A stretch of 64,000 nt of DNA. Origin: Octopus vulgaris (lineage: Eukaryota). How positions within the stretch are numbered: the stretch's first letter is position 1; each line of letters starts with the position of its first letter. A program made the translations under genes and the position numbers. The stretch lies in contig OX597814.1 in assembly GCA_951406725.2 (NCBI GenBank), positions 31,992,001 through 32,056,000 of the forward strand. The letters are read 5' to 3'. Of this stretch, positions 2,716 to 53,877 are shown piece after piece. A model generated the notes under the pieces. That model was given only the letters and a program-made list of their open reading frames with translations, ran no database searches and was not told the origin of the DNA.

Positions 2716-2717
<2 letters not shown>

Positions 2718-3287
2718 ATAAAATCTTTTTCGAGAAAAAAATTTTTATCAATGGCCAGCATATCAAAAAATGCTTTTAAAGGTAACATTTATACATAATT
2801 TACAAGATAAGGGCAGAAGAAAAATTCTAATGCCAGATACGCCGAAAAAAAATTGTCGATAACCATTTAATTTATGCGTCTCGAAAAAAAACCGATAGAA
2901 ATCTCTAAAAAATTCGTTATTACCGTATTGGTCCAATTTCGGGGTTAATTCTATTTTCGGATATATTTGAGATGCTTAAGTCTGCTCGGGATTTGGTGCT
3001 TGCTTCTTCCATGGGTATGAGTAAGTATTTCATTTATATCTCGCGTGTTTGCCGCTGAAGAGGGGGAAATTTCTTGTGAATTAACCCCGAAATTGGACCA
3101 ATACGATAATAACGAATTTTTTAGAGATTTTTATCTGTTTGTTTCGAGACGCATAAATTTAATGGTTATCGACAATTTTTTGTATCGGCGCATCTGGCAT
3201 TAGAATTTTTCTTCTGCCCTTATCTTGTAAATTATGTATAAATTTTACCTTTAAAGGCATTTTTTGATATGCTGGCAATTGATAAAA
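2716..3287 (+). mobile_element. Fold-back PLE-like remnant: inverted arms 2743-2951 / 3078-3287 next to a (TA)n tract
   Basis: ~210-bp imperfect inverted repeat with a hammerhead motif at the inner edge of the right arm. Confidence 0.8.
3049..3109 (+). ncRNA. Minimal type I hammerhead ribozyme motif
   Basis: ttgccg-CTGAAGA-ggggg..cccc-GAA-ATTGG a CCAAT-A-cgataa. The inverted arm preserves cggtaa, which pairs with ttgccg as stem I. Cleavage triplet AUA. Confidence 0.7.
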
Positions 3288-3292
3288 TTTAA

Positions 3293-3376
3293 TGGCTGAT
3301 GATTGCTCAACATGATAAAACTGTTGTAATACTTACAATATTTAATAAAATGATGTAGTGTGAAACGATCGTACCA
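3293..3376 (+). ncRNA. Type I hammerhead ribozyme motif (long stem II family)
   Basis: tgg-CTGATGA-(59 nt)-GAAAC-GATC-GTA-cca, with palindromic GATC loop. Homologous to the motifs at 6325 and 6743. Confidence 0.7.
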
Positions 3377-3414
3377 AATTACCGAAGTCATTCTTGTTGC
3401 TTATTTTTGATTAT

Positions 3415-3465
<51 letters not shown>

Positions 3466-3469
<4 letters not shown>

Positions 3470-3923
3470 TATAGTAAAGAATGGAGCTGAACGAAGATTT
3501 AACCAAATTCTTTTATTTTATTTTCGACATATGTCTATCTAGATAGACATTTTGTGTCATTAATTTCATGGGCTCCCCGTGAGCGTTTTTCGAAAAGCTT
3601 GTTGTGCATTTTGTTGGAGAATTAAGTTCCTGGATTTTCCTGAAGAGAAAGCTGCAAAATGGGCTCCTTATTCAATCGGAATTAGGGACTTTGCAGACTT
3701 CGAAACATATGTCGAAAATAAAATAAAGGAATTTGGTTAAATCTTCGTTCAGCTCCATGCTTTACTATACTTAATATATAAAACTTCAAATTTCCGCACT
3801 AAGGCACGGATTTTATGCCCCATGGTCGTAACTTCAACCGTGCTCTTTCTGTTGTGATTTTTGCTACCCAAGTATCGGTTATCATTTGAATTATCCGTAA
3901 TAAGATAATTCATTCATCTACTT

Positions 3924-3930
<7 letters not shown>
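3466..3930 (+). mobile_element. Fold-back PLE-like remnant between two (TA)n tracts (arms 3466-3534 / 3705-3773, plus 3' tail)
   Basis: Inverted arms visible. The tail 3774-3930 is homologous, in reverse complement, to 7752-7914. Confidence 0.8.
3634..3719 (+). ncRNA. Intact-looking type I hammerhead ribozyme
   Basis: attttc-CTGAAGA-gaaagctgcaaa..tttgcagacttc-GAAAC-ATAT-GTC-gaaaat. 6-bp stem I, extended stem II, palindromic ATAT loop, GUC triplet (cleavage after 3713). Confidence 0.85.
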
Positions 3931-4009
<79 letters not shown>

Positions 4010-4396
4010 ATCAAACTACTACTACTACTACTACTATACGAACGGCGTATACGTATATAGACACACTCTATGGTATTATCTGTAAGTTGGTGATTGAAAG
4101 GAATCTATTCCTCTATTTTCTTATTTTGTATTATGAATTTTATGTAAAACATTTTACCTTCGCCCATATAATGCAATAAATGAACTAATTGCATTGCAAT
4201 AGTAAGCATTTATGTATTAGCCTTTTGGGTACTTCACTGGCAGTATATTGGATAAATGATATCCCATAGTGGGTTACACTCATAACCCCTATCTCACTTT
4301 GTACTTATATATATATATATAAAACTTAGATAAAACTTAGATATGTTTCGACCAGAGATTGGTCCAGGCCATGTCTAACTTAATAGCACCACCTGT

Positions 4397-4599
4397 ATAT
4401 ATAGAAAATAGTAAAAAGTGAAAAAACTACAGAAGGCTTGTTTTAAAAGGTTAAAAAATATATATTTGAGTCATTATGTCAGAAGAATGGTATAAATTTT
4501 TTATAACATTCTTCTGACATAATAACTCAAATATATATTTTTTAACCTTTTAAAAGAAGCCTTCTGTAGTTTTTTCACTTTTTACTATCTTCTATATAT
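4397..4599. repeat. ~100-bp-arm near-perfect hairpin (fold-back) between (TA)n tracts
   Basis: 4397-4497 is the reverse complement of 4500-4599 with a few mismatches. Confidence 0.9.
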
Positions 4600-4634
4600 T
4601 CAACCACGTGCTTTCACACACCAATTTTCTCACC

Positions 4635-6147: not shown

Positions 6148-6229
<82 letters not shown>

Positions 6230-6324
6230 ATTAAGTTAAGGGCACCAGAATTTGGTATGGTATTATCCATATAAATCAAATAGGGTGATTATAATCAAAA
6301 TAAGCAGCAAGGATATCCAAAGTA

Positions 6325-6413
6325 GTATAGTACAATCGTTTCATGCTACTTCATTTTATTAAACACTGTAAGTATTACATCAGTTTTAAAATGTCGAGAA
6401 ATCTTCAGCCACA
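6325..6413 (-). ncRNA. Type I hammerhead ribozyme motif
   Basis: Minus strand: tgtgg-CTGAAGA-..-GAAAC-GATT-GTA-ctata. Confidence 0.7.
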
Positions 6414-6742
6414 TATAGAATGTTTTAATTAAATGGACAATGTACATTTTTATACTTATTTCATTTGCCAACAATACAAAGAGGGTAGATATATAGACAG
6501 AGAGGAAAATTTCATCATTAAGAACATGGTAGTAGAATGTTCTTCTCCATCTGTAGATTTATTATCACTGAGTTCTCTTTGTTATTTAGATCTATCAGTG
6601 GGGAGGGGGTTTCTTTTCTTCTACTGCCATGTTCTTAATGATGAAATTTTCCTCTCTGTCAATATATCTACACTCTTTGTAATGTTGGCAAATGAAATAA
6701 GTATAAAAATGCACATTGTCCAGTTAATTAAAAAATACTATA

Positions 6743-6830
6743 TGTGGCTGATGATTGCTCGACATTTAAAAACTGAGGTAATACTTACAGAGTTTAATAA
6801 AATGAAGCAGCATGAAACGATTGTACTACA
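6743..6830 (+). ncRNA. Type I hammerhead ribozyme motif
   Basis: tgtgg-CTGATGA-ttgct..agcat-GAAAC-GATT-GTA-ctaca. 5-bp stem I with one G-U pair. Confidence 0.75.
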
Positions 6831-6846
6831 CTACATTCGATATCCC

Positions 6847-7418
<572 letters not shown>

Positions 7419-7650: not shown

Positions 7651-7751
7651 TATAAATAAATATTTTTGTGCGTCTATATGTATATACATGTATGCATATA
7701 TATGTGTGTATATATACATCTATATATATATATATGTATATATATATATAA

Positions 7752-8414
7752 TTTATGTGAAATAGAAAGATGAATAATCTTGTAGTAGATTAATCAAAAG
7801 TTTAACCGATACCTTAGTAGCAAAAATCACAGCAGTAAACAGCACGGTTGGAGGTACAACCATATGGTGTTGCAACCGTGCGTTGGTGCGGATAATTGAA
7901 ATTAAAATATTATTGGTGAATTGAAGAAATGGAGCTGAACGCAGATTGAACAGAAATCGTTTTATTTCATTCTACACGTGTTTCGAAAGTTTAAGAGAGC
8001 TTGTTTTGTCTATTCCCATCCTCATTGCTAAGGATCAGGGACCGCGAATCTATGCACCACTCTCCAAATGACTCCTGCCACTGACCAAGTCTTTTAGTCC
8101 ATTCTTTGATGTCATCCAACCAGTGTTTCCTTCTTGATCTCTTCTACCTCATTTCCCCATTGACCCAACCTCCACGATATGGGTGTCAATGTTTTGGCCC
8201 CTGATCACATGCCCCACAATACATCAGCTTAAGCTTCCTGATATTTGCCAAGAGTTCTCTTTCCATTCCCATTTCTCTGAGTCCTGACTCATTTGTTCAA
8301 TGGTCAGTCCAGCTGATCCTCACTACTCTTCAGTAGTGCCTTTCGAAACACGTGTAGAATGAAATAAAACGATTTCTGTTCAATCTGCGTTCAGCTCCAT
8401 TTCTTCAATTCACC
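7752..8414. mobile_element. Fold-back PLE-like remnant with 75-bp perfect inverted arms (7915-7989 / 8340-8414) enclosing a LINE fragment
   Basis: Each arm begins with the 3' half of a hammerhead (GAAAC-ACGT-GTA). Family related to 3466-3930. TA-rich tracts on both sides. Confidence 0.8.
8010..8338 (-). mobile_element. RTE-like LINE 3' ORF fragment
   Basis: Minus-strand translation shows RVVRISWTDH, GHVIR and KHWLDDIKEWT, typical of the RTE-clade ORF C-terminus. Confidence 0.75.
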
Positions 8415-8450
8415 TATATATATATATGTATAAATATATATATATATATG

Positions 8451-13509: not shown

Positions 13510-13701
13510 ACACACAAAAGCCGTTCGATTCACTTCAACATTTAAGTTTAATTTGTCAAAATATTTTCGTCGCTAAAATCCGCGACCTGTTCACTGACAA
13601 AAATCCGTGCTGGCTTATAAACACCTTCCACGCTGCAATTGTTTTCGTTTCAGCACATGATTTCAGATCAAATTACTTGCTATGCGAGTACATCTCCGTA
13701 A
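13510..13701. mobile_element. 5'-inverted (twin-primed) copy of the 14816-15022 element, flanked by an 11-bp TSD atcattctgaa
   Basis: Order is B + rc(A), versus A + B at 14816. TSD at 13499-13509 and 13702-13712. Confidence 0.85.
13552..13601 (-). ncRNA. Variant hammerhead ribozyme with G3-C8 compensatory core (GUGAACA)
   Basis: Minus strand: tttgtca-GTGAACA-g-gtcgc ggatttta gcgac-GAA-AATATT-T-tgacaaa. 7-bp stem I, 5-bp stem II, palindromic stem III. Confidence 0.7.
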
Positions 13702-14070
13702 ATCATTCTGAAGATATTTGTCAAATGTAACGAGGTAAATATAAATTTACTCCGATTTGATGAACAGAAACAGCTGCTGCAAATGGTTCCGAACTACAAT
13801 TAAATAGTGGCTTTTTAATACCAATGATCAACTTCTCATTGTTAATTATTGCTCCATTTCTTTTCTTTTCCCTTCTTTTCTATTTACAGAAATATGAATA
13901 TATTCATATGTTGACATTCTCCCTCAATCTATTTATATATATATATAATATCCTTTCAATTCGTTTAAAGTAAACGTTTTGTATATGCATAAAAACACTC
14001 ACATTTTACTATGCCGGTTACGACCTAGTGTTACCAACTGCCAAGAACAGTTTTTGGGGTTGCACCATTA

Positions 14071-14097
14071 AACCCGTCGTATATGTATGTGTGTGTG

Positions 14098-14153
<56 letters not shown>

Positions 14154-14370
14154 CTTATGCGTGTGTGTCTTTGTGTCCAACCATCGCTTGTTTGGGCGGT
14201 TACGTCCGTGTAACCAAGCGGTTCGGAAAAGAGAATGATAGAATAAGTACTAGCCTTCCAAAGAATAAATCCTGCGGTCGATTTCTTCGACTAAAAAAAA
14301 AGGACTTTTTAAGTGGGTGCTCCAGCGTGACCGCAGACAGATACCTGAAACAAGTAACAGAGTAAAAGAG
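14071..14370 (+). mobile_element. SINE family A, 3' two-thirds
   Basis: cccgtcgtatatg, microsatellite, gcggttcggaaaagag, gtgctccagc, gaaacaagtaa. Confidence 0.8.
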
Positions 14371-14782
14371 AATATGTAAGTATAGATGTATGTATTTATG
14401 GATGTATGTGTGTGCGCATGCGTGCGTGTTTGTATGTGTGTGGCTGTGTGTGTGTGTCTGTTTGTGTGTGTGTGTGTAGCCACATATATTCATATGTATA
14501 TGTATTTTTAATTGCTGGCATGACAACGCCATTTGATTTTGTATCTATAATACACTAGTAAGTATATTATAGATTCAAAAGTTAATATTGTGTAAAAAGT
14601 GCTACATAATCATTTTAGCGTTATTTCTATAGCACTTGAAAGTGGTTGTCCTTTCATCAGCATGACATGTAACCCATCAACTATGGGTGAAATTATCTCT
14701 TATGATAATAAGCTGATAAAAGGACAATTCTCCTTAAAATATCGCATTGTTCCTTTAAACTTTATACACACACGTGTATAAG

Positions 14783-14814
<32 letters not shown>

Positions 14815-14815
14815 T

Positions 14816-15019
14816 TACGGAGATGTACTTGCATAGCAAGTGATTTGATGGGAAATCGTATGCTGAAACGAAAACAATTGCAGCGTGGAAGGTGTTTGTA
14901 AGCCATTTAAGAAACACACAACAGCCGTTCGATTGACTTCAACATTTAAGTTTAATTTGTCAAAATATTTTCGTCGCTTTAAGACTGCGACCTGTTCACT
15001 GGCAAAAATCCGTGCTGCA

Positions 15020-22713: not shown

Positions 22714-23446
22714 CTTTCATCGATATGGGTAATATTAAATATCGTAAACTAAATATATACGTGTTTGTACGCGTGTGCGTGAGTGCGTATGTGCTTGTGT
22801 AGTGTGTGTGTGTACGTCTTCGCGTTTGTGAAGGAAACATTCTGAGAGACTTAACATAATATTTTGGTCCCTAACTTCAGCTACTGTCCTCATCCCTTTC
22901 TCTATTGAAATATACTATAACAAAATCACAAAATTCCTCCAAAGTGTGTTTACCTTTTAATAGCATTTATTACTCGATAGAGAATATTATTCAGTACGCC
23001 CTCTAACAATCTTCTAATAATTCATGAGGCTACACACATTCAAACGTACACAAACACACATATTTTAGCACACACACACACACGCATAATTTGGCTCGCG
23101 CACACACACACACGCACTCTTACGTCTCTGTATATTAGATATGCTAAGATTATATTTCTCTTCTCATGACATTAAACTATACTGTGACGATGGATTAGAG
23201 ATATCTCATAGCTGTGATGTTCATACCCTTGATATATTTAGGAAAAATTTAATGTCTATCTTTGATAAATAAAAACTTTAAAATGGCTGTCGCTACAAAC
23301 TTATAGAAAGTCAGTTACTTAGATGCTTCCCGAGAGATAATCCTCTACTCTTACATCCCTACAATACATTCGGAGAAAGGCTTGCACATATACATAAACC
23401 CTCTGGTCAACGCCACCTTTGTTTTTAACTATAACATTAAAAAAAA

Positions 23447-23755
23447 ATATTGTTGTATTTAGGGATGGTCATGTTGCCAGTTTAGCCAATAAAAACACAC
23501 GCACTATATATTTGGTGTTAATTTTCTCACACAAATAAGAAAGAAGAAATAACGGACCACTGATGAGGTCACAGAAGTGTAATGAAAGAATTGTGGCCGA
23601 AATACGATTAATGTAAAAAATAAAATAAAGCTGAAGCAAATTAACACAAAAATATATAGTGCGTTTGGTTTTATTGGCTAAACTGGCAACATGACCATCC
23701 CTAAATACAACAATATCTGTTTCAATACACGAATTCATATCAAGAATCTTGCAAG
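23447..23755. mobile_element. Fold-back element (arms 23447-23524 / 23638-23716) with a hammerhead core at 23560-23602 (+)
   Basis: CTGATGA-ggtcaca..tgtggcc-GAAA in the spacer. Homologous in reverse complement to 47721-47880. Confidence 0.75.
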
Positions 23756-24287: not shown

Positions 24288-24619
24288 ATAAGGATAAATT
24301 CGTTAATTTAATTATCTTCTTATCAAGTGGCCAGCATGGGAATAAAAACCTCCAAAGGTAATAATTATTATTAAAATTATAATTTACGGTATCTAAGAGA
24401 TACCTCCACGCTGGAAATATCACCCAAAACTTGACTCTTGAACCACATTAAATGTTCATACAGCACCAGGAAAAGATGAACTAGCAAAAAATTTGCTAGA
24501 TCATCTTGTCCATTCGTCTTTTCTCCTGGTGCTGTATGAACATTTAATGTGGTTTTAGAGTCAAGATTTGGCTGCTATTTCCAGCGTGGAGGTATCTCTT
24601 AGATACCGTAAATTATAAT
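24288..24619. mobile_element. Fold-back remnant (arms 24376-24480 / 24513-24619) preceded by the conserved PLE-like 3'-tail motif
   Basis: Inverted arms visible, with a nested hairpin at 24473-24507. Adjacent to (TA)n. Confidence 0.75.
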
Positions 24620-26144: not shown

Positions 26145-26775
26145 AGGCGGTGAGTTGGCAGAAACGTCAGCACACCGGGCGAAATGCTTAGTGGTATTTC
26201 GCCTGCCGCTACGTAGTGCGTCCAAATTCCGCCGAGGAATTCTACTTTGCCTTTCATCCTTTCGGAGTCGATAAATTAAGTACCAGTTACGCACTGGTTC
26301 GATGTAATCAACTTAATCCGATTGTCTGTCCTTGTTTGTCCTCTCTGTGTTTAGCCCCTTGTGGGTAGTAAAGAAATAGATATTTCGTCTGCCGCTACGT
26401 TCTGAGTTCAAACTCCGCCGAGGTCGACTTTACCTTTCATCCTCTCGGCGTCGATAAATTAAGTACCAATTGCGTACTGGGGTCCATCTAATCGATTGGA
26501 ACCCTCGCCCAAAATTTCGGGTCTTACCTAGAGTAGAAAAGAATGTGCATGCTGAGTATAAAGCAGTGAGCTGACAGAATCGTTAGAATGCCGGTCAAAA
26601 TGATTATCAGCATTTTGTCAGTCTTTATGTTCTGAGTTCAAGTTTCGCCGGGATCGATTTTGCCATTCGATCATGTGTGGTTGATAAAATAAATACCAGT
26701 TGAGTACTGAGGTCTCTGTGATCGCCTTAACCTCGCCTTCGAACTAGCTGGACTTGTGCCAAATTTTCAAATAAT
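26145..26775 (+). mobile_element. Cluster of SINE family B units
   Basis: Family B head at 26145, second unit from ~26380, diverged unit from 26562. Confidence 0.85.
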
Positions 26776-26981: not shown

Positions 26982-27372
26982 CTAGCAGTATCGCCCGGCG
27001 TTGCTCGGGTTTGTAAGGGAAATAACTATAAAGCATTTTTAGAGAGTTATAGCAAAAAAAATAGCAAAAATTGCATAAAATATGGAAAAAAAATTATGGT
27101 AAATTTTTTTAATCGTTGACTCATCGTAGACATTTTTAGAGAGTTACTTCCCTTATATTTTAAAAAATATGCATTAAAATGGAAAAAATGAAGGTAAATC
27201 TTTTTTTAAATCGTAGACTCATCGTAGACGCGCGCTAATACCCAGAAGGGCTTGATATGAATCACGACTATAAGATACCCGGTTTGGGTTAAACTGCACC
27301 GCAAAATGTAGGAGTAGTTAGGAATCTAAATCGGAGTAGACAGACACACAACCTTTCTTTTATATATAAAGA
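26982..27372 (-). mobile_element. Non-autonomous Helitron-like element
   Basis: Minus strand begins 5'-TC(tttatatataaaag) and ends CTAG-3', with a subterminal hairpin cccgagcaacgccggg. Inserted between A and T with no TSD. Confidence 0.75.
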
Positions 27373-27698
27373 TTACTTATATGTTTTCTAAATCCTGACA
27401 ATATTTATGACCATACCCAACTACGAACAGTCAACTCACTCTGTCTATCCATTCAAAACAGACACTGTCCTCTAGCCTTAGATTTGGTAGTCGATAAAAA
27501 AAAGACTAATAAATTAAAGGCGAACTAAAATCATTTACAAGTTATGACACTAACAAACTTCATACAGCTCTTAGAAGTGTAGAATGTTCTGAATGACATT
27601 AGTAGCAATATGAACTTTCTTCCACTTCTTGCTCTATTAGAGATTTTGAGTAAGATTATATTAGTATAACCAACTGTTTAACAACATTCGATTTATCT

Positions 27699-27787
27699 AT
27701 GCAGCTGATGACAGCCCTGCATTTAAATTGATGTAAATCATTGCATTGTTCAATTAAATGGGGCCGCTTGAAACGGTCGTACTGCAT
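27699..27787 (+). ncRNA. Intact-looking type I hammerhead ribozyme with long stem II
   Basis: atgcag-CTGATGA-cagccctgcatttaaattga..tcaattaaatggggccgctt-GAAAC-GGTC-GTA-ctgcat. 6-bp stem I. The tail (atatcctgttgcttatgttgat) resembles the 3293/6325 family and runs into (TA)n. Confidence 0.85.
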
Positions 27788-27822
27788 CCCCTTTTAATAT
27801 CCTGTTGCTTATGTTGATCATA

Positions 27823-27890
<68 letters not shown>

Positions 27891-28181
27891 ATTTCAACAA
27901 TTGAGGGTAAAATTAATTAATTAATTATTAATCAATTTCACCAAGTGTTCAGTATGTAAAGGGACCATTTAAGGCGAATTCAAATTATTACATTATATAA
28001 AAGGGCTTAGTAAAATAAATTACTTTGCCACATACTGAACTTATTAGAAATAGTAGTTAAAAAAACTTTTTTTAAACTATTTCTAATACTTAAAGAAAAT
28101 CTCTCTCATATAGTGTTTGCTCAATTCAACTCACGAAAGTATGGGGGTAAAGACATTAAAAAATCAAATGCAAAGGTTATT

Positions 28182-28234
28182 TGAGAACGTACGTTTCAAG
28201 ATTAGTCAAACTCGACATTTCTATCATCAGCTCA
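28182..28234 (-). ncRNA. Type I hammerhead ribozyme
   Basis: Minus strand: tgag-CTGATGA-tagaaatgtcgagtttgactaatctt-GAAAC-GTAC-GTT-ctca. Confidence 0.8.
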
Positions 28235-29004
28235 GAACTCCTTGGTTTGGATTTGAAAACACTGAAAGTGGGAGCATACCCTTTCGGCTTCTTATCGCTT
28301 CTGAAGATCTGCTCGAAACTAACAGTGCCAGCACACCCAAAATATGCAAGCGAAGAATTTCTGCTCTCCCCTTTCCACCAGCGTGGGTTAAAATCAGTAA
28401 ACACTATGCCTTTTCGGTAAATCCGAAACATTAAATATTAAATAGAGAGAGATGAATTATAATTTCAACAATTGAGGGTAAAATTAATTAATTAATTATT
28501 AATCAATTTCACCAAGTGTTCAGTATGTAAAGGGACCATTTAAGGCGAATTCAAATTATTACATTATATAAAAGGGCTTAGTAAAATAAATTACTTTGCC
28601 ACATACTGAACTTATTAGAAATAGTAGTTAAAAAAACTTTTTTAAAACTATTTCTAATACTTAGAGAAAATCTCTCTCATATAGTGTTTGCTCACTTAAA
28701 TGGTCCCTTTACATACTGAACACTTGGTGAAATTGATTAATAATTAATTAATTAATTTTACCCTGAATTGTTGAAATTATAATTCATCTCTCTCTATTTA
28801 ATATTTAATGTTTCGGATTTACCGAAAAGGCATAGTGTTTACTGATTTTAACCCATGCTGGTGGAAAGGGGAGAGCAGAAATTCTTCGCTTGCATATTTT
28901 GGGTGTGCTGGCACTGTTAGTTTCGAGCAGATCTTCAGAAACGATAAGAAGCCGAAAGGGTATGCTCCCACTTTCAGTGTTTTCAAATCCAAACCAAGGA
29001 GTTC

Positions 29005-29057
29005 TGAGCTGATGATAGAAATGTCGAGTTTGACTTATCTTGAAACGTACGTTCTCA
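29005..29057 (+). ncRNA. Type I hammerhead ribozyme (inverted copy of 28182-28234)
   Basis: tgag-CTGATGA-..-GAAAC-GTAC-GTT-ctca, with palindromic GTAC loop and GUU triplet. Confidence 0.8.
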
Positions 29058-29248
29058 AATAACCTCTGCATTTGATTTTTTAATGTCTTTACCCCCATAC
29101 TTTCGTGAGTTGAATTGAGCAAACACTATATGAGAGAGATTTTCTTTAAGTATTAGAAATAGTTTTAAAAAAGTTTTTTTACCTACTATTTCTAATAAGT
29201 TCAGTATGTGGCAAAGTAATTTATTTTACTAAGCCCTTTTATATAATG

Positions 29249-29306
<58 letters not shown>

Positions 29307-29308
29307 CA

Positions 29309-29340
<32 letters not shown>

Positions 29341-29395
29341 CATACATATATATATATATACATATATATATATACATATATATATATACATATAC

Positions 29396-29440
<45 letters not shown>

Positions 29441-29501
29441 CATATACATATATATATACATATATATATATACATATATATATATACATATATATATATA
29501 C

Positions 29502-29557
<56 letters not shown>

Positions 29558-29574
29558 ATATGTGTGTGTGTGCG

Positions 29575-29790
29575 CGCGTGTGTTTTTGTGTTTGTCCCCA
29601 TCACCACTTTACAACCAGAATTGGTGTGTTTGTTTACGTCCTCGTAACCTAGCCATTCAACCAAAAAGATCGATAGAATAAGTATAAGGCTTTAAAAAGT
29701 AAGCCCGGTGTTCGACTTACTCTACTAAACCCATCCAAGACTGTGCTCCAGCATGGCTGCAGTCAAATGACTGAGACAAATAAAAGGAAT
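29575..29790 (+). mobile_element. SINE family A 3' half
   Basis: tttgtcccc...gatagaataagta...gtgctccagcatggctgcagtcaaatgactga. Confidence 0.8.
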
Positions 29791-31628: not shown

Positions 31629-32012
31629 GGCGGCGAGCTGGCAGAATCATTAGTAGGCTGGACGAAATGGGAAGCCGTATTTCGTCTGCCGTTACGTTCT
31701 TTCATCCTTTCTGGGTCGATTAAATAAGTACCAGTTACTCAGTGGGGTCGATGTAATCGACTTAATACCTATGTCTGTCCTTCTTTGTCCCCTCAATGTT
31801 TAGCCTCTTGTGGGTAGTAAAGAAATGGGTATTTCGTCTGTCGTTACGCTCTGAGTTCAAATTCCGCCGAGGTCGACTTTGCCTTTCATTCTTTCGGGGT
31901 CGATAAATGAAGTACCAGTTTCGCACTGGGGTCGATATAATCGACTTAATCCGTTTGTCTGTCCTTGTTTGTACCCTCTATGTTTAGCCCCTTGTGGGCA
32001 GTAAAGAAATAT
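31629..32012 (+). mobile_element. SINE family B, dimeric
   Basis: Two successive units ending tagcc.cttgtggg.agtaaagaaat. Confidence 0.88.
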
Positions 32013-34247: not shown

Positions 34248-34612
34248 AACTGACTACCCTATATTTTACGTATATTTAGCGATTTTAAAAGATTATTTCG
34301 GCATTTATTCATTTACTGCAGACTGTAACTGCGCTTGCGCGGTGAATTTGAAAAGTCATAATGTATAACGATGAGACAGGTGTTATTCGTCTCTTAATTA
34401 TATGTTAGTGTTATGGCGAGGTCACTGACGAGAAATTTCGCCTAGAAAATTATTTTATTTGCTAAAAAAATTTGAAATCTAGGTCTGACCGGATTAAAAT
34501 AACAAGGTAAAAGTACTTGGCTTCCAAAGAATAAGTCTTGGGGTCGATTTGTTCGACTAAAGGCGGTGACCCTGCATGACCGCAGTGATATAATTAAAAC
34601 AAGTAAAAGACA
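34044..34612 (+). mobile_element. SINE family A split at its internal (TA)n by a hammerhead-bearing insert (~34245-34510)
   Basis: 5' half at 34044-34200 and 3' tail at 34511-34612. Confidence 0.8.
34420..34490 (+). ncRNA. Type I hammerhead ribozyme
   Basis: ggtca-CTGACGA-gaaattt..aaaattt-GAAA-TCTAG-GTC-tgacc. 5-bp stem I, near-palindromic stem III, GUC triplet. Confidence 0.78.
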
Positions 34613-38859: not shown

Positions 38860-39015
38860 AGAGTTTGGCACCAGGCGAGCAATTACCGGATAAAAGTCGA
38901 TGACATTGATTTTATCGACCCCAGAAAGGAAGAACGGTAAAGTAGACCTCGGCGGAATTTGAACCCGCAAAGAGTTTTGACCGACGTGCTAATGATTCTA
39001 CCAGGTCACCGCCTT
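38860..39015 (-). mobile_element. Degenerate SINE family B
   Basis: tttatcgacccc..gacctcggcggaatttgaac..gtcaccgcctt. Confidence 0.7.
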
Positions 39016-39378
39016 ATTTTAAGCTATAAAATTAAATGCCTATTTATTTAGATTTTCAAGCTTCAAATGGTATATAAGCAACATGTTTCACGGAAGAAAG
39101 GCCTAATATTTATATTATTTTTGTTAGACCTGAACTATTACTATTAGTATTATTTGATTGCACGAAAATCAAATGACATTCTGAGACCTTTTTACACTGC
39201 TAAGAACAGCGTGGTAGATTCATTCGATGGCAGTAAAATACTGGTATGATCATTGCTATATTAATAAAATCATTGAGTGACAGACACCTGTTTTCAAACG
39301 CGAGACATTGCACCTGACGATGTATAACATTACTTATTAATTTTGAATATTAGAGGTTATTAATTTGGAAGAAATATA

Positions 39379-39603
39379 CTCTTTTACTCTTTTAATTGTT
39401 TCAGTCATTTGACTGTGGCCATGCTGAAGCACCGCCTTTAATCGAGCAAATCGATCCCAGGACTTATTCTTTGTAAGCCTAGTACTTATTCTACCGGTCT
39501 CTTTTGCCGAACCGCTAAGGTACGGGGACGTAAACACACCAGCAGCGGTTGCCAAGCGATGTTGAGTGGGGGGCAAACACAGACACACAAAGGTATACAC
39601 ACG

Positions 39604-39641
<38 letters not shown>

Positions 39642-39781
39642 TACGATGGGTGTCTTTCAGTTTCCTTCCACCAAATCCATTCACAAGGCTTTGGTCGGCC
39701 TGAGACTATATTAGAAACACTTGCCCAAGTTGCCATGTGGTTCGTAAGCAAGCTACTTACCACACAACCACTCCTACGCCT
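39379..39781 (-). mobile_element. SINE family A, near full length
   Basis: Reverse complement of family A. Confidence 0.9.
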
Positions 39782-40052
39782 ACGTCTATGGCATCAACTA
39801 AATCGGTTTCAACACTTGAATGATACCTTATTTATTGGCTTCAGAATGTTGAGAACAAAATGTGTATTTGGAACTCATGACAGGTAAGGAACGTAATTGC
39901 ATAATGTCCTCTGTGCAATCTGTTATCCCTTGCATGCGGTGTCACCAGCACCTTCACTACTATAATAATAACTCTGTTCGTAGTAGGTGTTTAGCACTCA
40001 GCAAGGATCATCAGGAGGGTTCTAAGCACTTGAGAATCCACATAATGCCTAC

Positions 40053-40373
40053 AATTTAGCCGTCCCAGTTATAAGTTACAGCTACAATATCCTTAAGTGG
40101 ACACTAAAGGAACTAATCAAAATAGACAGGAAAGCAAGAAAAATAATGACAGGATTTAGAATCTGACATAGAAAGTTTATATATACAACGTATAAAAGGT
40201 GGTAGAAGCCATATACAGCTAGAAAACTATTACAAAATAACAAGCATAGGACTGCAAAAATAACTACTTGAGAAGTAAGGAAATCTAATACAAATAGCCA
40301 CAAAACACAAGCAAAACGAAAAAAAATGATTTCAGTCTTTTAGGAAGCTGACAAATACAAACAAGAAGTCATT
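40053..40373 (+). mobile_element. R4/Dong-type LINE post-RT fragment
   Basis: Translates to LAVPVISYSYNILKWTLKELIKIDRKARKIMTGFR..LYIQRIKGGRSHIQLE. Confidence 0.8.
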
Positions 40374-41589
40374 GGTTTTGTAACAGGGTGCCAGGTTTAT
40401 TGTATTTATACTGATGTTTTCTCTCACAGAAATCCTTATATGGAGCACTCATCACTCTCACATAGAATCATGGAATTTACTGTGACAGGAATCATCATGA
40501 GACGGAGAAGGATCAAGTTACAAATTTTGAACTCACAACCAGATCTAGATTTCTGGTGGGAGGTGAAATGTGTTGTATTGGGGAGAGCAAGGCCTAAGAA
40601 GATTTTCACTGGAAAACTGGGCTGGGATGGGGCTGGAGATTTAGATTCCGGTGAAACCTGGGATACTGAGCAGGATTCCCGACGTAATCCCCTTTGGGTA
40701 GCAATAGAAGGAAACGGTGAAGGATAGAAGTCCAAGCTGTTATAATTTTCGAAACACCAATAGCCGTAAGAATTTTCGTCCAAACAGCAAGATAAAGAGA
40801 CAGTTGAAGAGAAGCCTCCGCTACTAATATCATATCAATAACAACAACCACAACGGCTACAATACCAACAGACATAATAGAACCTACACACAACCTTAGT
40901 AACTGTCATTGCCTTAATTGTGGAAAGAAGGCCAACAATGACAGCAACATTAAGAGTAATAAAAACAAGAAAAGAAGTACCGCCTACAGGACTTAACACA
41001 TCCCGATGCACATCACGATGCATGACAAATTCAGATCAAGCGAGATGTGATCGGCAACTAATACTTATTGGCTGTTAAGGCAGCGAGCTGGCAGAAACGT
41101 TAGCGCGCCGGCCGAAATGCGTAACCGTATTTCGTCTGCCGTTATGTTCTGAGTTCAAATTCCGCCGAGCTCGACTTTGCCTTTCATCCTCTCGGGGTCG
41201 ATTAAATAAGTACCAGTTACGCACTGGGGTCGATGTAATTGACTTAATCCGTTTGTCTGTCCTTGTTTGTCCCCTTTGTTTGTAGCCCCTTGTGGGTAGT
41301 AAAGAATCGTAATACTTATTGGCTGTCCTCACAGCAGCCGGTTTCAGTCCTTCTTTCAGACTAAATTGCTGTAACGTACAATGGCATCTGCTTGATGGTT
41401 AGAGAGAATAACTACCTAACGTCACGATTCAGTTTCATTTGCCCGGTGTGTCAAAGATCTCTTCTGTATGTTCTGTCTTTTCGGTATGTTCTGTCTCTTC
41501 GGTATGTTCTGTCTCTCACGTAACTACAGCGCAAAGAACAGATTTTGAGTATCCTGTGCGAAATAAAATACGGAAGATTTTTATCGGAA
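40368..41589 (+). repeat. Left arm of a ~0.9-kb inverted duplication (partner 44237-45157); decayed LINE ORF1-like sequence
   Basis: Ends gtcattggttttgt.acagggtgccagg and aaaatacggaaga.ttttatcggaa are shared in reverse complement. Frame ENWAGMGLEI*IPVKPGILSRIPDVIPLG is followed by a Thr-rich stretch. Confidence 0.8.
41079..41307 (+). mobile_element. SINE family B with 17-bp TSD taatacttattggctgt
   Basis: TSD at 41059-41075 and 41310-41326. The empty site is present in the partner arm at 44464-44480. Confidence 0.92.
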
Positions 41590-50260: not shown

Positions 50261-50399
50261 GTGGAAATACCCTCCACTTTTCGAAAGAAAGCAGGAGGAT
50301 TTAACGTTTCGAACGGAGCTCTTCGTCAGAAACATAGAAAAAGGAAAGTTCCAAGGAAGGGAATACGGAGAAAGAAAATCGTCAACGATACACACGCGG

Positions 50400-50443
<44 letters not shown>

Positions 50444-50512
50444 GTGTGTGTGTGACCGCGTGTGTATCGTTGACGATTTTCTTTCTCCGTATTCCCTTCC
50501 TTCGAACTTTCC
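50261..50512. mobile_element. Hammerhead-bearing repeat folded back around a (CA)n(TA)n(TG)n centre (arms 50343-50410 / 50445-50512)
   Basis: Arms are near-identical reverse complements. Same family as 11104-11305. Confidence 0.85.
50300..50332 (-). ncRNA. Minimal hammerhead ribozyme (zero-loop ACGU stem III)
   Basis: Minus strand: ttt-CTGACGA-a-gagc tcc gttc-GAAACGTT-aaa. Confidence 0.7.
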
Positions 50513-53703: not shown

Positions 53704-53877
53704 TATATACATACATCTGTGTATTTGTGTGTGAGTGCAGACAATAATGTGTACATCTGTGTGCTTGGATGTGTATATGCATGAATGCATATACACATCC
53801 AAGCACGCAGATATATATATTTATATATATATGTATGTATGTATGTATATGCATGAATGCATGTACACATCCAAGCA

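Follow-up and report, generated by a model that had tools for sequence, protein, structure and literature searches.

Diverging arms of a hammerhead-bearing, protein-free repeat between (TA)n tracts in Octopus vulgaris: a retrozyme-like unit with the build of a Penelope-like insertion

Whether animal retrozymes are mobilised by Penelope-like elements (PLEs), and in which form their RNA serves as template, is stated to be open in the available text of PMC7229834, and a preprint (10.64898/2026.07.22.740005) reports limited evidence on the retrozyme life cycle. For PLEs themselves, the formation of tandem and inverted copies and the bias for microsatellites are listed as unexplained (PMC8557442). 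Herein we examine a locus of Octopus vulgaris that bears on these questions. It lies in a microsatellite-rich, animal-genome-like stretch of 64 kb (64,000 nt, hereafter the window), where a 571-nt unit with a hammerhead ribozyme runs head to tail into a partial second unit and is then joined to an inverted copy. How did this arrangement arise, to which class does the unit belong, and which RNA was copied into it?

Architecture of the locus and its predicted ribozymes

A preliminary description of the locus had claimed a period of 571 with about 1.4 tandem units, a permuted inverted near-monomer lying across the unit junction, scattered differences between the copies and (TA)n on both sides, all of which was borne out (Table 1). 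At an offset of 571 nt, positions 27887-28123 equal 28458-28694 with two differences (28073/28644 and 28093/28664). The inverted arm is the reverse complement of 27989-28544 with seven differences in 556 nt, spans the head-to-tail junction at 28461/28462 and is only 15 nt short of a monomer. Taken together, the copies differ at eight scattered sites (8 changes over 1364 nt), and six of the eight private changes fall in the inverted arm (P=0.055), an excess that may hint at a second template molecule. Followed on the ribozyme strand, the two arms run outward from the centre, and each 3′ end borders on (TA)n; in unit phase these ends are separated by 102 nt and lie 197 and 299 nt downstream of the predicted ribozyme cut. 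No further copy of the 571-nt unit was found elsewhere in the 64-kb window. Read-through of the locus would produce a 556-bp RNA hairpin.

Table 1 Features of the focal locus and of other hammerhead insertions in the window (strand is that of the ribozyme sense)
Feature	Position	Strand or core	Remarks
Long (tandem) arm	27887-28694	minus	808 nt, 1.41 units; 3′ end at left (TA)n
Single full unit	27891-28461	minus	571 nt, 32.6% GC
Partial second unit	28462-28694	minus	5′-truncated on ribozyme strand; without ribozyme
Short (inverted) arm	28695-29250	plus	556 nt; 3′ end at right (TA)n
Head-to-tail junction	28458-28462		found again in inverted arm and in diverged contigs of public runs
Inversion join of arms	28694/28695		blunt; exact microhomology absent
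Left (TA)n tract	27820-27890		TATA overlap with long arm, 4 nt (27887-27890)
Right (TA)n/(TACA)n tract	29240-29561		putative target part 29250-29561, with 1-nt overlap with short arm
One-sided extension between arm ends	27887-27988	minus	102 nt
Predicted hammerhead, tandem arm	28172-28243	minus	CUGAUGA 28230-28224, GAAA 28197-28194, GUU 28188-28186
Predicted hammerhead, inverted arm	28996-29067	plus	CUGAUGA at 29009, GAAA at 29042, GUU 29051-29053
Hammerhead family, two copies ~76% alike	3468-3929, 7750-8423	core 3640 plus	diverging arms between (TA)n
Third hammerhead family	6228-6845 (relative 3293-3414)	cores 6408 minus, 6748 plus	each diverging arm has a core
Near-perfect palindrome	7218-7418	core 7348 minus	centred in stem I; hammerhead with long stem III
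Inverted pair, 93%, 214 nt	2716-3290	hammerhead-like core ~3056 plus	palindromic stem III, AUA triplet

Each arm carries one predicted type I hammerhead, the two lying on opposite strands (28230 minus, 29009 plus), and the cut of the tandem-arm copy is predicted at 28186/28185. Stem I consists of 4 bp and an interrupted extension, stem II comprises 26 nt and stem III has 2 bp, set within a perfect 10-nt palindrome (28195-28186). Two core features are non-textbook, namely the GUU cleavage triplet, which is permitted but slower, and a U.U mismatch that opens stem II. The latter (U10.1-U11.1) is a known natural variant that supports cleavage (PMC3088659). The ribozymes were identified with a hand-written descriptor, which matched none of 2000 shuffled monomers. 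Rfam returned no match at the gathering threshold across the whole window and, at E<=10, five weak matches, none of them to a ribozyme family, so the assignment rests on the descriptor and the literature consensus.

Short palindromic stems III are described as the design by which metazoan and PLE hammerheads depend on dimers (PMC4209133), and in our calculations the 8-nt stem III palindrome reaches -9.8 kcal/mol as a duplex versus +2.4 kcal/mol as a monomer hairpin. Such modelling suggests that efficient cutting by the focal ribozyme would be limited to dimers within tandem arrays. The earlier claim of one intact hammerhead per monomer holds as one per arm but fails for the partial second unit, which contributes none, and each strand of the locus thus has a single ribozyme. 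Release of a monomer by double self-cleavage is therefore impossible from this locus, which for the same reason is likely a dead-end copy.

Two side observations concern hammerheads nearby. An unrelated, intact-looking type I hammerhead occupies 27699-27820 (core 27705 plus, 6-bp stem I, GUA) and stops ~30 nt short of the focal locus's left (TA)n, so that one tract is common to two elements. In addition, a pyrimidine.U in place of G-C opens stem II in four unrelated hammerhead families of the window (6748, 7348, 27705 and 28230/29009); the variant is a known one, and its frequency here is striking.

A multi-copy family without a coding body

The stretch was found in 20 of the 24 public runs listed, which belong to eight studies and carry three organism labels, one run possibly being the source of the window itself. 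Four runs were aligned to one rotated unit (28040-28610), where 4648, 3004, 1871 and 243 contigs matched with identities from below 90% up to 99+-100%, noting that contig depth does not equal copy number, and where all 29 bins of the unit were covered in each of the four. The share of contigs continuing into unlike sequence was 0, 0, 0 and 0.01. Among the 32 pieces listed (there are 9803 further ones), at least five cross 28461/28462, all of them diverged from the window copy; none of those listed has 31 letters on each side, the best having 80 and 23. The junction, whose possible uniqueness to this locus had been named as a point to check, hence appears not to be locus-unique. We read these data as a multi-copy family that wraps on itself and in which most copies have no attached coding body.

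The unit itself gave no sign of protein. Its longest stop-to-stop frames are 106 and 86 aa, none of the five unit frames reaches the Pfam cut-off, and among 11 frames there was no match at cut-off to RT/GIY-YIG or any other Pfam family. The ATG in the ribozyme core can be read for 16 codons only (frame 28177-28437), and single-base, frameshifting indels are common in the family, inside the longest frames. A coding role was rejected on the length of the frames, the Pfam result and these indels, in agreement with the earlier statement that no credible ORF is present. A tRNA origin was likewise rejected, with zero tRNA genes found.

These results weigh on a first alternative, in which the unit is the 5′-truncated terminal repeat (pLTR plus tail) of an autonomous PLE and most copies were truncated from a protein-coding parent. 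Single hammerheads and opposite-strand pairs of them, 100-700 bp apart, have been ascribed to truncated PLEs in Schistosoma (PMC4209133), and PLE start sites lie shortly downstream of the hammerhead, to be compared with the 197 and 299 nt past the cut seen here. However, the 571 period wraps on itself in both arms and in the diverged contigs, almost no contigs continue into unlike sequence, the core ATG has its short reading and the longest frames have their indels, and we regard this origin as unlikely.

By computation the unit is highly structured, its circular fold reaching -149.6 kcal/mol (z -8.8 on the ribozyme strand and -6.8 on the opposite strand, 40 dinucleotide shuffles each). Of 36 family substitutions present at >=8% in at least one run, nine break predicted pairs versus 12.5 expected, a difference short of significance (P=0.096). 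Within the ribozyme core they touch only position 7, which is free, and position 10.1; the two are changed together in a minority of 2-8%, whereby an A-U pair is restored, and none of the 36 falls in GAAA, stem III or GUU.

A second alternative, in which an infectious, viroid-like replicon of circular RNA was integrated as DNA, draws on the size of the unit, on its strong fold in both polarities and on an opposite-strand string, CUGAAGA...GAAA, at 28301. As a second ribozyme of opposite polarity this string was rejected: it is without stem II and a valid triplet, fails the descriptor and is not conserved, being disrupted in two of the listed loose ends. The family is moreover genomic and multi-copy, and one hammerhead pattern matched no viral contigs and two patterns matched no metagenome contigs. 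A viroid-like RNA would be expected to show ribozymes in both polarities and no genomic DNA phase, and the unit shows neither. We therefore consider a viroid-like source very improbable.

The variation within the family also speaks to how the two arms are related. They differ at 1 of 35 family-variable sites versus ~9.8 expected for random members (from rough depth-weighted frequencies), which places both arms in one template lineage. None of the 24 loose ends listed (of 343) falls at 28458-28462 or 28560, an absence among those listed that dispersed ends, or arrays that are mostly long, would also explain. The focal inversion joint is absent from the two opposite-strand joints listed (28207/28304 and 28500/28573, one contig each, likeness 85), which may be the inversion centres of other copies and offer too little evidence to be counted. 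Some runs show steps in depth near 28460 and 28560 of the kind expected from fixed 3′ ends with 5′ truncation; they were set aside because contig depth gives no ranking of regions within a stretch and adjacent bins are divergent. Variation within the family is greatest at 28410-28457 (a 7-nt indel, clipped contigs), which adjoins the head-to-tail junction, and we may speculate that this segment was the site of a coding body since lost.

Class assignment, insertion geometry and the template

Judged from its sequence, the unit is a putative non-LTR retrozyme, that is, a non-autonomous PLE derivative, as metazoan non-LTR retrozymes have been proposed to be (PMC7229834; preprint 10.64898/2026.07.22.740005). 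This agrees with the preliminary reading of a retrozyme-like element, non-coding and ribozyme-bearing. Like the retrozymes in these sources, it is a short, non-coding, head-to-tail unit of a multi-copy family with a type I hammerhead per full unit, a GC content below 45% (32.6%) and high self-pairing (z -8.8). Its 571 nt exceed the 170-400 nt of characterised circles and fall within the 51-972 bp of the preprint. The focal locus differs in having only 1.4 units and one ribozyme per strand, whereas two consecutive complete hammerheads on the same strand mark an “active” retrozyme in the preprint. In the available text of the two sources, an inverted arm, a tail or a (TA)n target is not described for retrozymes, and the word “inverted” occurs nowhere in PMC7229834 and once in the preprint.

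These very features have counterparts in EN+ PLEs (Penelope/Poseidon, Neptune and Nematis, with Naiad/Chlamys for the (TA)n bias), as described in PMC8557442, PMC11167929 and PMC4209133: partial tandems, an adjacent inverted 5′-truncated copy, a one-sided tail, a microsatellite target and a hammerhead whose small stem III is palindromic and which lies upstream of the 3′ ends. The focal unit differs from them in having no RT or GIY-YIG frame, so that the ORF with both domains that defines an autonomous PLE is absent, and in its tail of 102 nt versus 30-40; Naiads, unlike the focal unit, are without hammerheads. Non-autonomous Chlamys elements such as MRC1 are similar as protein-free PLE dependants with pLTRs and multi-copy head-to-tail insertions, but are algal (Chlamydomonas) and belong to a clade without canonical hammerheads (PMC8557442).

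In the literature searched (open papers, main texts), neither this family nor any retrozyme that has an inverted arm and a tail was described. No such family appeared by title or abstract for octopus and hammerhead ribozyme, the main text of the Octopus vulgaris repeat annotation (PMC13282606) contains neither “ribozyme” nor “retrozyme”, and a search for twin priming with Penelope and inversion returned unrelated papers only. The family may already be catalogued in Repbase or Dfam.

According to PMC8557442, PLE insertions are built of partial tandems with an adjacent inverted, 5′-truncated copy at the 5′ end, carry a tail of 30-40 bp on one side only and, in Naiads, prefer (TA)n as target. In vitro, a lizard PLE protein cut and extended both strands and favoured DNA rich in AT, its RT used two internal RNA start sites whose spacing equals the tail, and its main substrate was unprocessed RNA (PMC11167929). 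At the focal locus we likewise find a partial tandem with an adjacent inverted 5′-truncated copy, and 3′ ends joined to AT-rich or (TA)n target. By analogy, the 102-nt extension would be the equivalent of the PLE tail between two RT start sites, and each (TA)n tract would have been nicked target and primer, the left one for the long arm and the right one for the short arm. A PLE-type insertion as such, whether from an uncut tandem or a circular template, is in our view highly probable; the link to PLEs made in the preliminary description was right and is stronger than claimed there.

Diverging arms also arise in L1 twin priming, where both target strands prime on the RNA. The focal locus differs in being without poly(A) or a definable target-site duplication, and in arms that exceed one unit and ends that overlap by 87-141 nt; placed on one linear RNA, its arm ends would need an 87- or 141-nt overlap under classical twin priming.

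The more specific scenario that we favour, with about even confidence, is a single-event insertion by a PLE RT/GIY-YIG protein acting in trans, which used two internal priming sites on an RNA of more than one unit, most probably an uncut tandem. This RNA would have come from a tandem source array at another place, and the PLE protein would have bound the structured RNA in trans and nicked (TA)n, with both target strands priming at internal sites ~100 nt apart. The left target strand would have copied 808 nt starting at phase 27887 and the right one 556 nt starting at phase 27989, and blunt joining of the two cDNA ends would have set the arms back to back. The ribozyme would not have cut this template, or the template would have been re-ligated, because both arms read across the cut site. 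Against this scenario count the 102-nt tail, longer than the published 30-40 bp, and the negative result for an autonomous partner or an RT/GIY-YIG frame among the 11 frames compared with Pfam. Reverse transcription of a multimeric or circular RNA with a strand switch had been proposed before; a more-than-unit RNA is still likely, and the strand switch is better understood as two-strand priming at two internal sites.

Which more-than-unit RNA this was is a further matter. Both arms run through the cut site as well as the junction, which excludes a cut linear monomer as template, yet junction crossing needs only a template of more than one unit, and a re-ligated circle or an uncut tandem RNA fits equally; our preference for the linear form is one of analogy only. 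In the circular version, the same PLE two-strand priming would have used a ligated 571-nt monomer, the long arm being a rolling-circle product with ~237 nt of strand displacement. Both arms do cross the unit junction as well as the predicted cut, and the long arm is more than one unit in length, with near-identical repeated parts. In the predicted fold, a long paired arm carries the ribozyme at its tip and would keep the cut ends together, and the active fold is computed at only 5.3 kcal/mol above the circular MFE. Retrozymes of coral, mussel and axolotl accumulate as circles (PMC7229834), and mobilisation of circles by PLEs is a published hypothesis (PMC7229834; PMC4209133).

Several points pull the other way. 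The core looks weak (GUU, U.U, 2-bp stem III), only one of nine Xenopus dimers was cleaved in vitro (preprint 10.64898/2026.07.22.740005), and the PLE tested did not need ribozyme cleavage (PMC11167929). In addition, at 28073 the first unit carries a minority allele of the family (7-15% by depth), the majority allele being found in the second unit and in the inverted arm, a difference that different units of a multimer could explain, at a site on the edge of a homopolymer. We thus regard the circular template as possible but doubtful, and it is only tentatively that the locus might be called a direct genomic record of a PLE RT rolling round a ligated 571-nt ribozyme circle from the two strands of nicked (TA)n.

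Further hammerhead loci of the window and what the family may tell

The PLE-type build is not confined to the focal locus. Outside it, the strict descriptor matched at five positions in the window, compared with 0.017 per 64 kb in block shuffles. There are 12 other inverted pairs, half of which (6/12) have a hammerhead core or homology to one. Five of the hammerhead-bearing pairs can be oriented, and all five have diverging arms like those of the focal locus, so that six of six hammerhead insertions, the focal one included, share the same orientation to the ribozyme strand (one-sided P=0.016; two of them are one family). The tally left out 23441-23722, with its core between the arms, and the six pairs without a core. 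One-sided extensions of 65, 149 and 157 nt were measured in the pairs with both ends on TA runs. The neighbouring elements have no real similarity to the focal unit, the best local match being 20 nt of AT-rich sequence.

Most informative is the family with two copies, at 3468-3929 and 7750-8423, whose two end phases are identical within 1-3 nt, beside (TA)n and with a one-sided extension of ~150 nt. Equal end phases in both copies point to fixed priming sites rather than random circle phases; the evidence for fixed ends comes from this neighbouring family and not from the focal one. Hammerhead elements of this genome thus generally insert with diverging arms, likely from fixed priming sites.

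The shared orientation also bears on an origin at the DNA level, be it fold-back repair at fragile (TA)n, by which a satellite-like repeat was locally duplicated and inverted, or an artefact of assembly. Long (TA)n and AT sequence rich in hairpins break easily and are difficult to assemble, and the contigs listed include none that spans the focal locus or its inversion joint. Nevertheless, fold-back repair would not give equal orientation in all six hammerhead insertions, the eight scattered differences are unlike a collapsed or mirrored assembly, and diverged contigs cross the junction. Such an origin is quite improbable.

Further details of the neighbouring insertions were as follows. In copy 7750-8423 the arms are separated by ~350 nt (7990-8339) that belong to neither of them. 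The element at 6228-6845 has its left end at (TA)n and its right end interrupted by an interspersed repeat, 7218-7418 lies between TA runs with a 65-nt one-sided extension, and in 2716-3290 only the copy in the left arm has an intact stem I. Further hammerhead or hammerhead-like cores lie at 34420-34490 (34425 plus) and 23441-23722 (23560 plus, flanked by the inverted arms). No recognisable core was seen in further palindromes or inverted pairs at 4394-4602, 24376-24619, 13611-14905, 50343-50512, 53746-53821 and 38909-41207; three of them (4394, 24376 and 53746) have TA runs within ~100 nt and could reflect the same insertion mode with the ribozyme truncated. Among repeats of other kinds, a short element at 26982-27375 has internal direct repeats of ~98 nt and ends that we take to resemble those of non-autonomous Helentron/DINE-type elements. 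Short interspersed repeats are abundant, in places with ~184-nt tandem spacing (26193-26730, 29541-29706, 31680-31998 and many others), and presumably resemble cephalopod SINEs.

A protein-free hammerhead repeat with the insertion build of a PLE ties retrozymes to the PLE mode. With 8 changes in 1364 nt, this multi-copy family is young at the focal locus, and the window contains several further, unrelated families of like build. The cycle proposed for retrozymes runs from tandem RNA through self-cleavage and a circle to more-than-unit cDNA; should the circular reading be true, the young insertions here and in the neighbouring families would be the first genomic proof of this cycle in an animal. 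The ends and lengths of arms across the genome could serve as a computational test both of fixed priming and of circle against multimer. None of the individual ingredients is new, and the family is a good test case for the mobilisation of retrozymes by PLEs.
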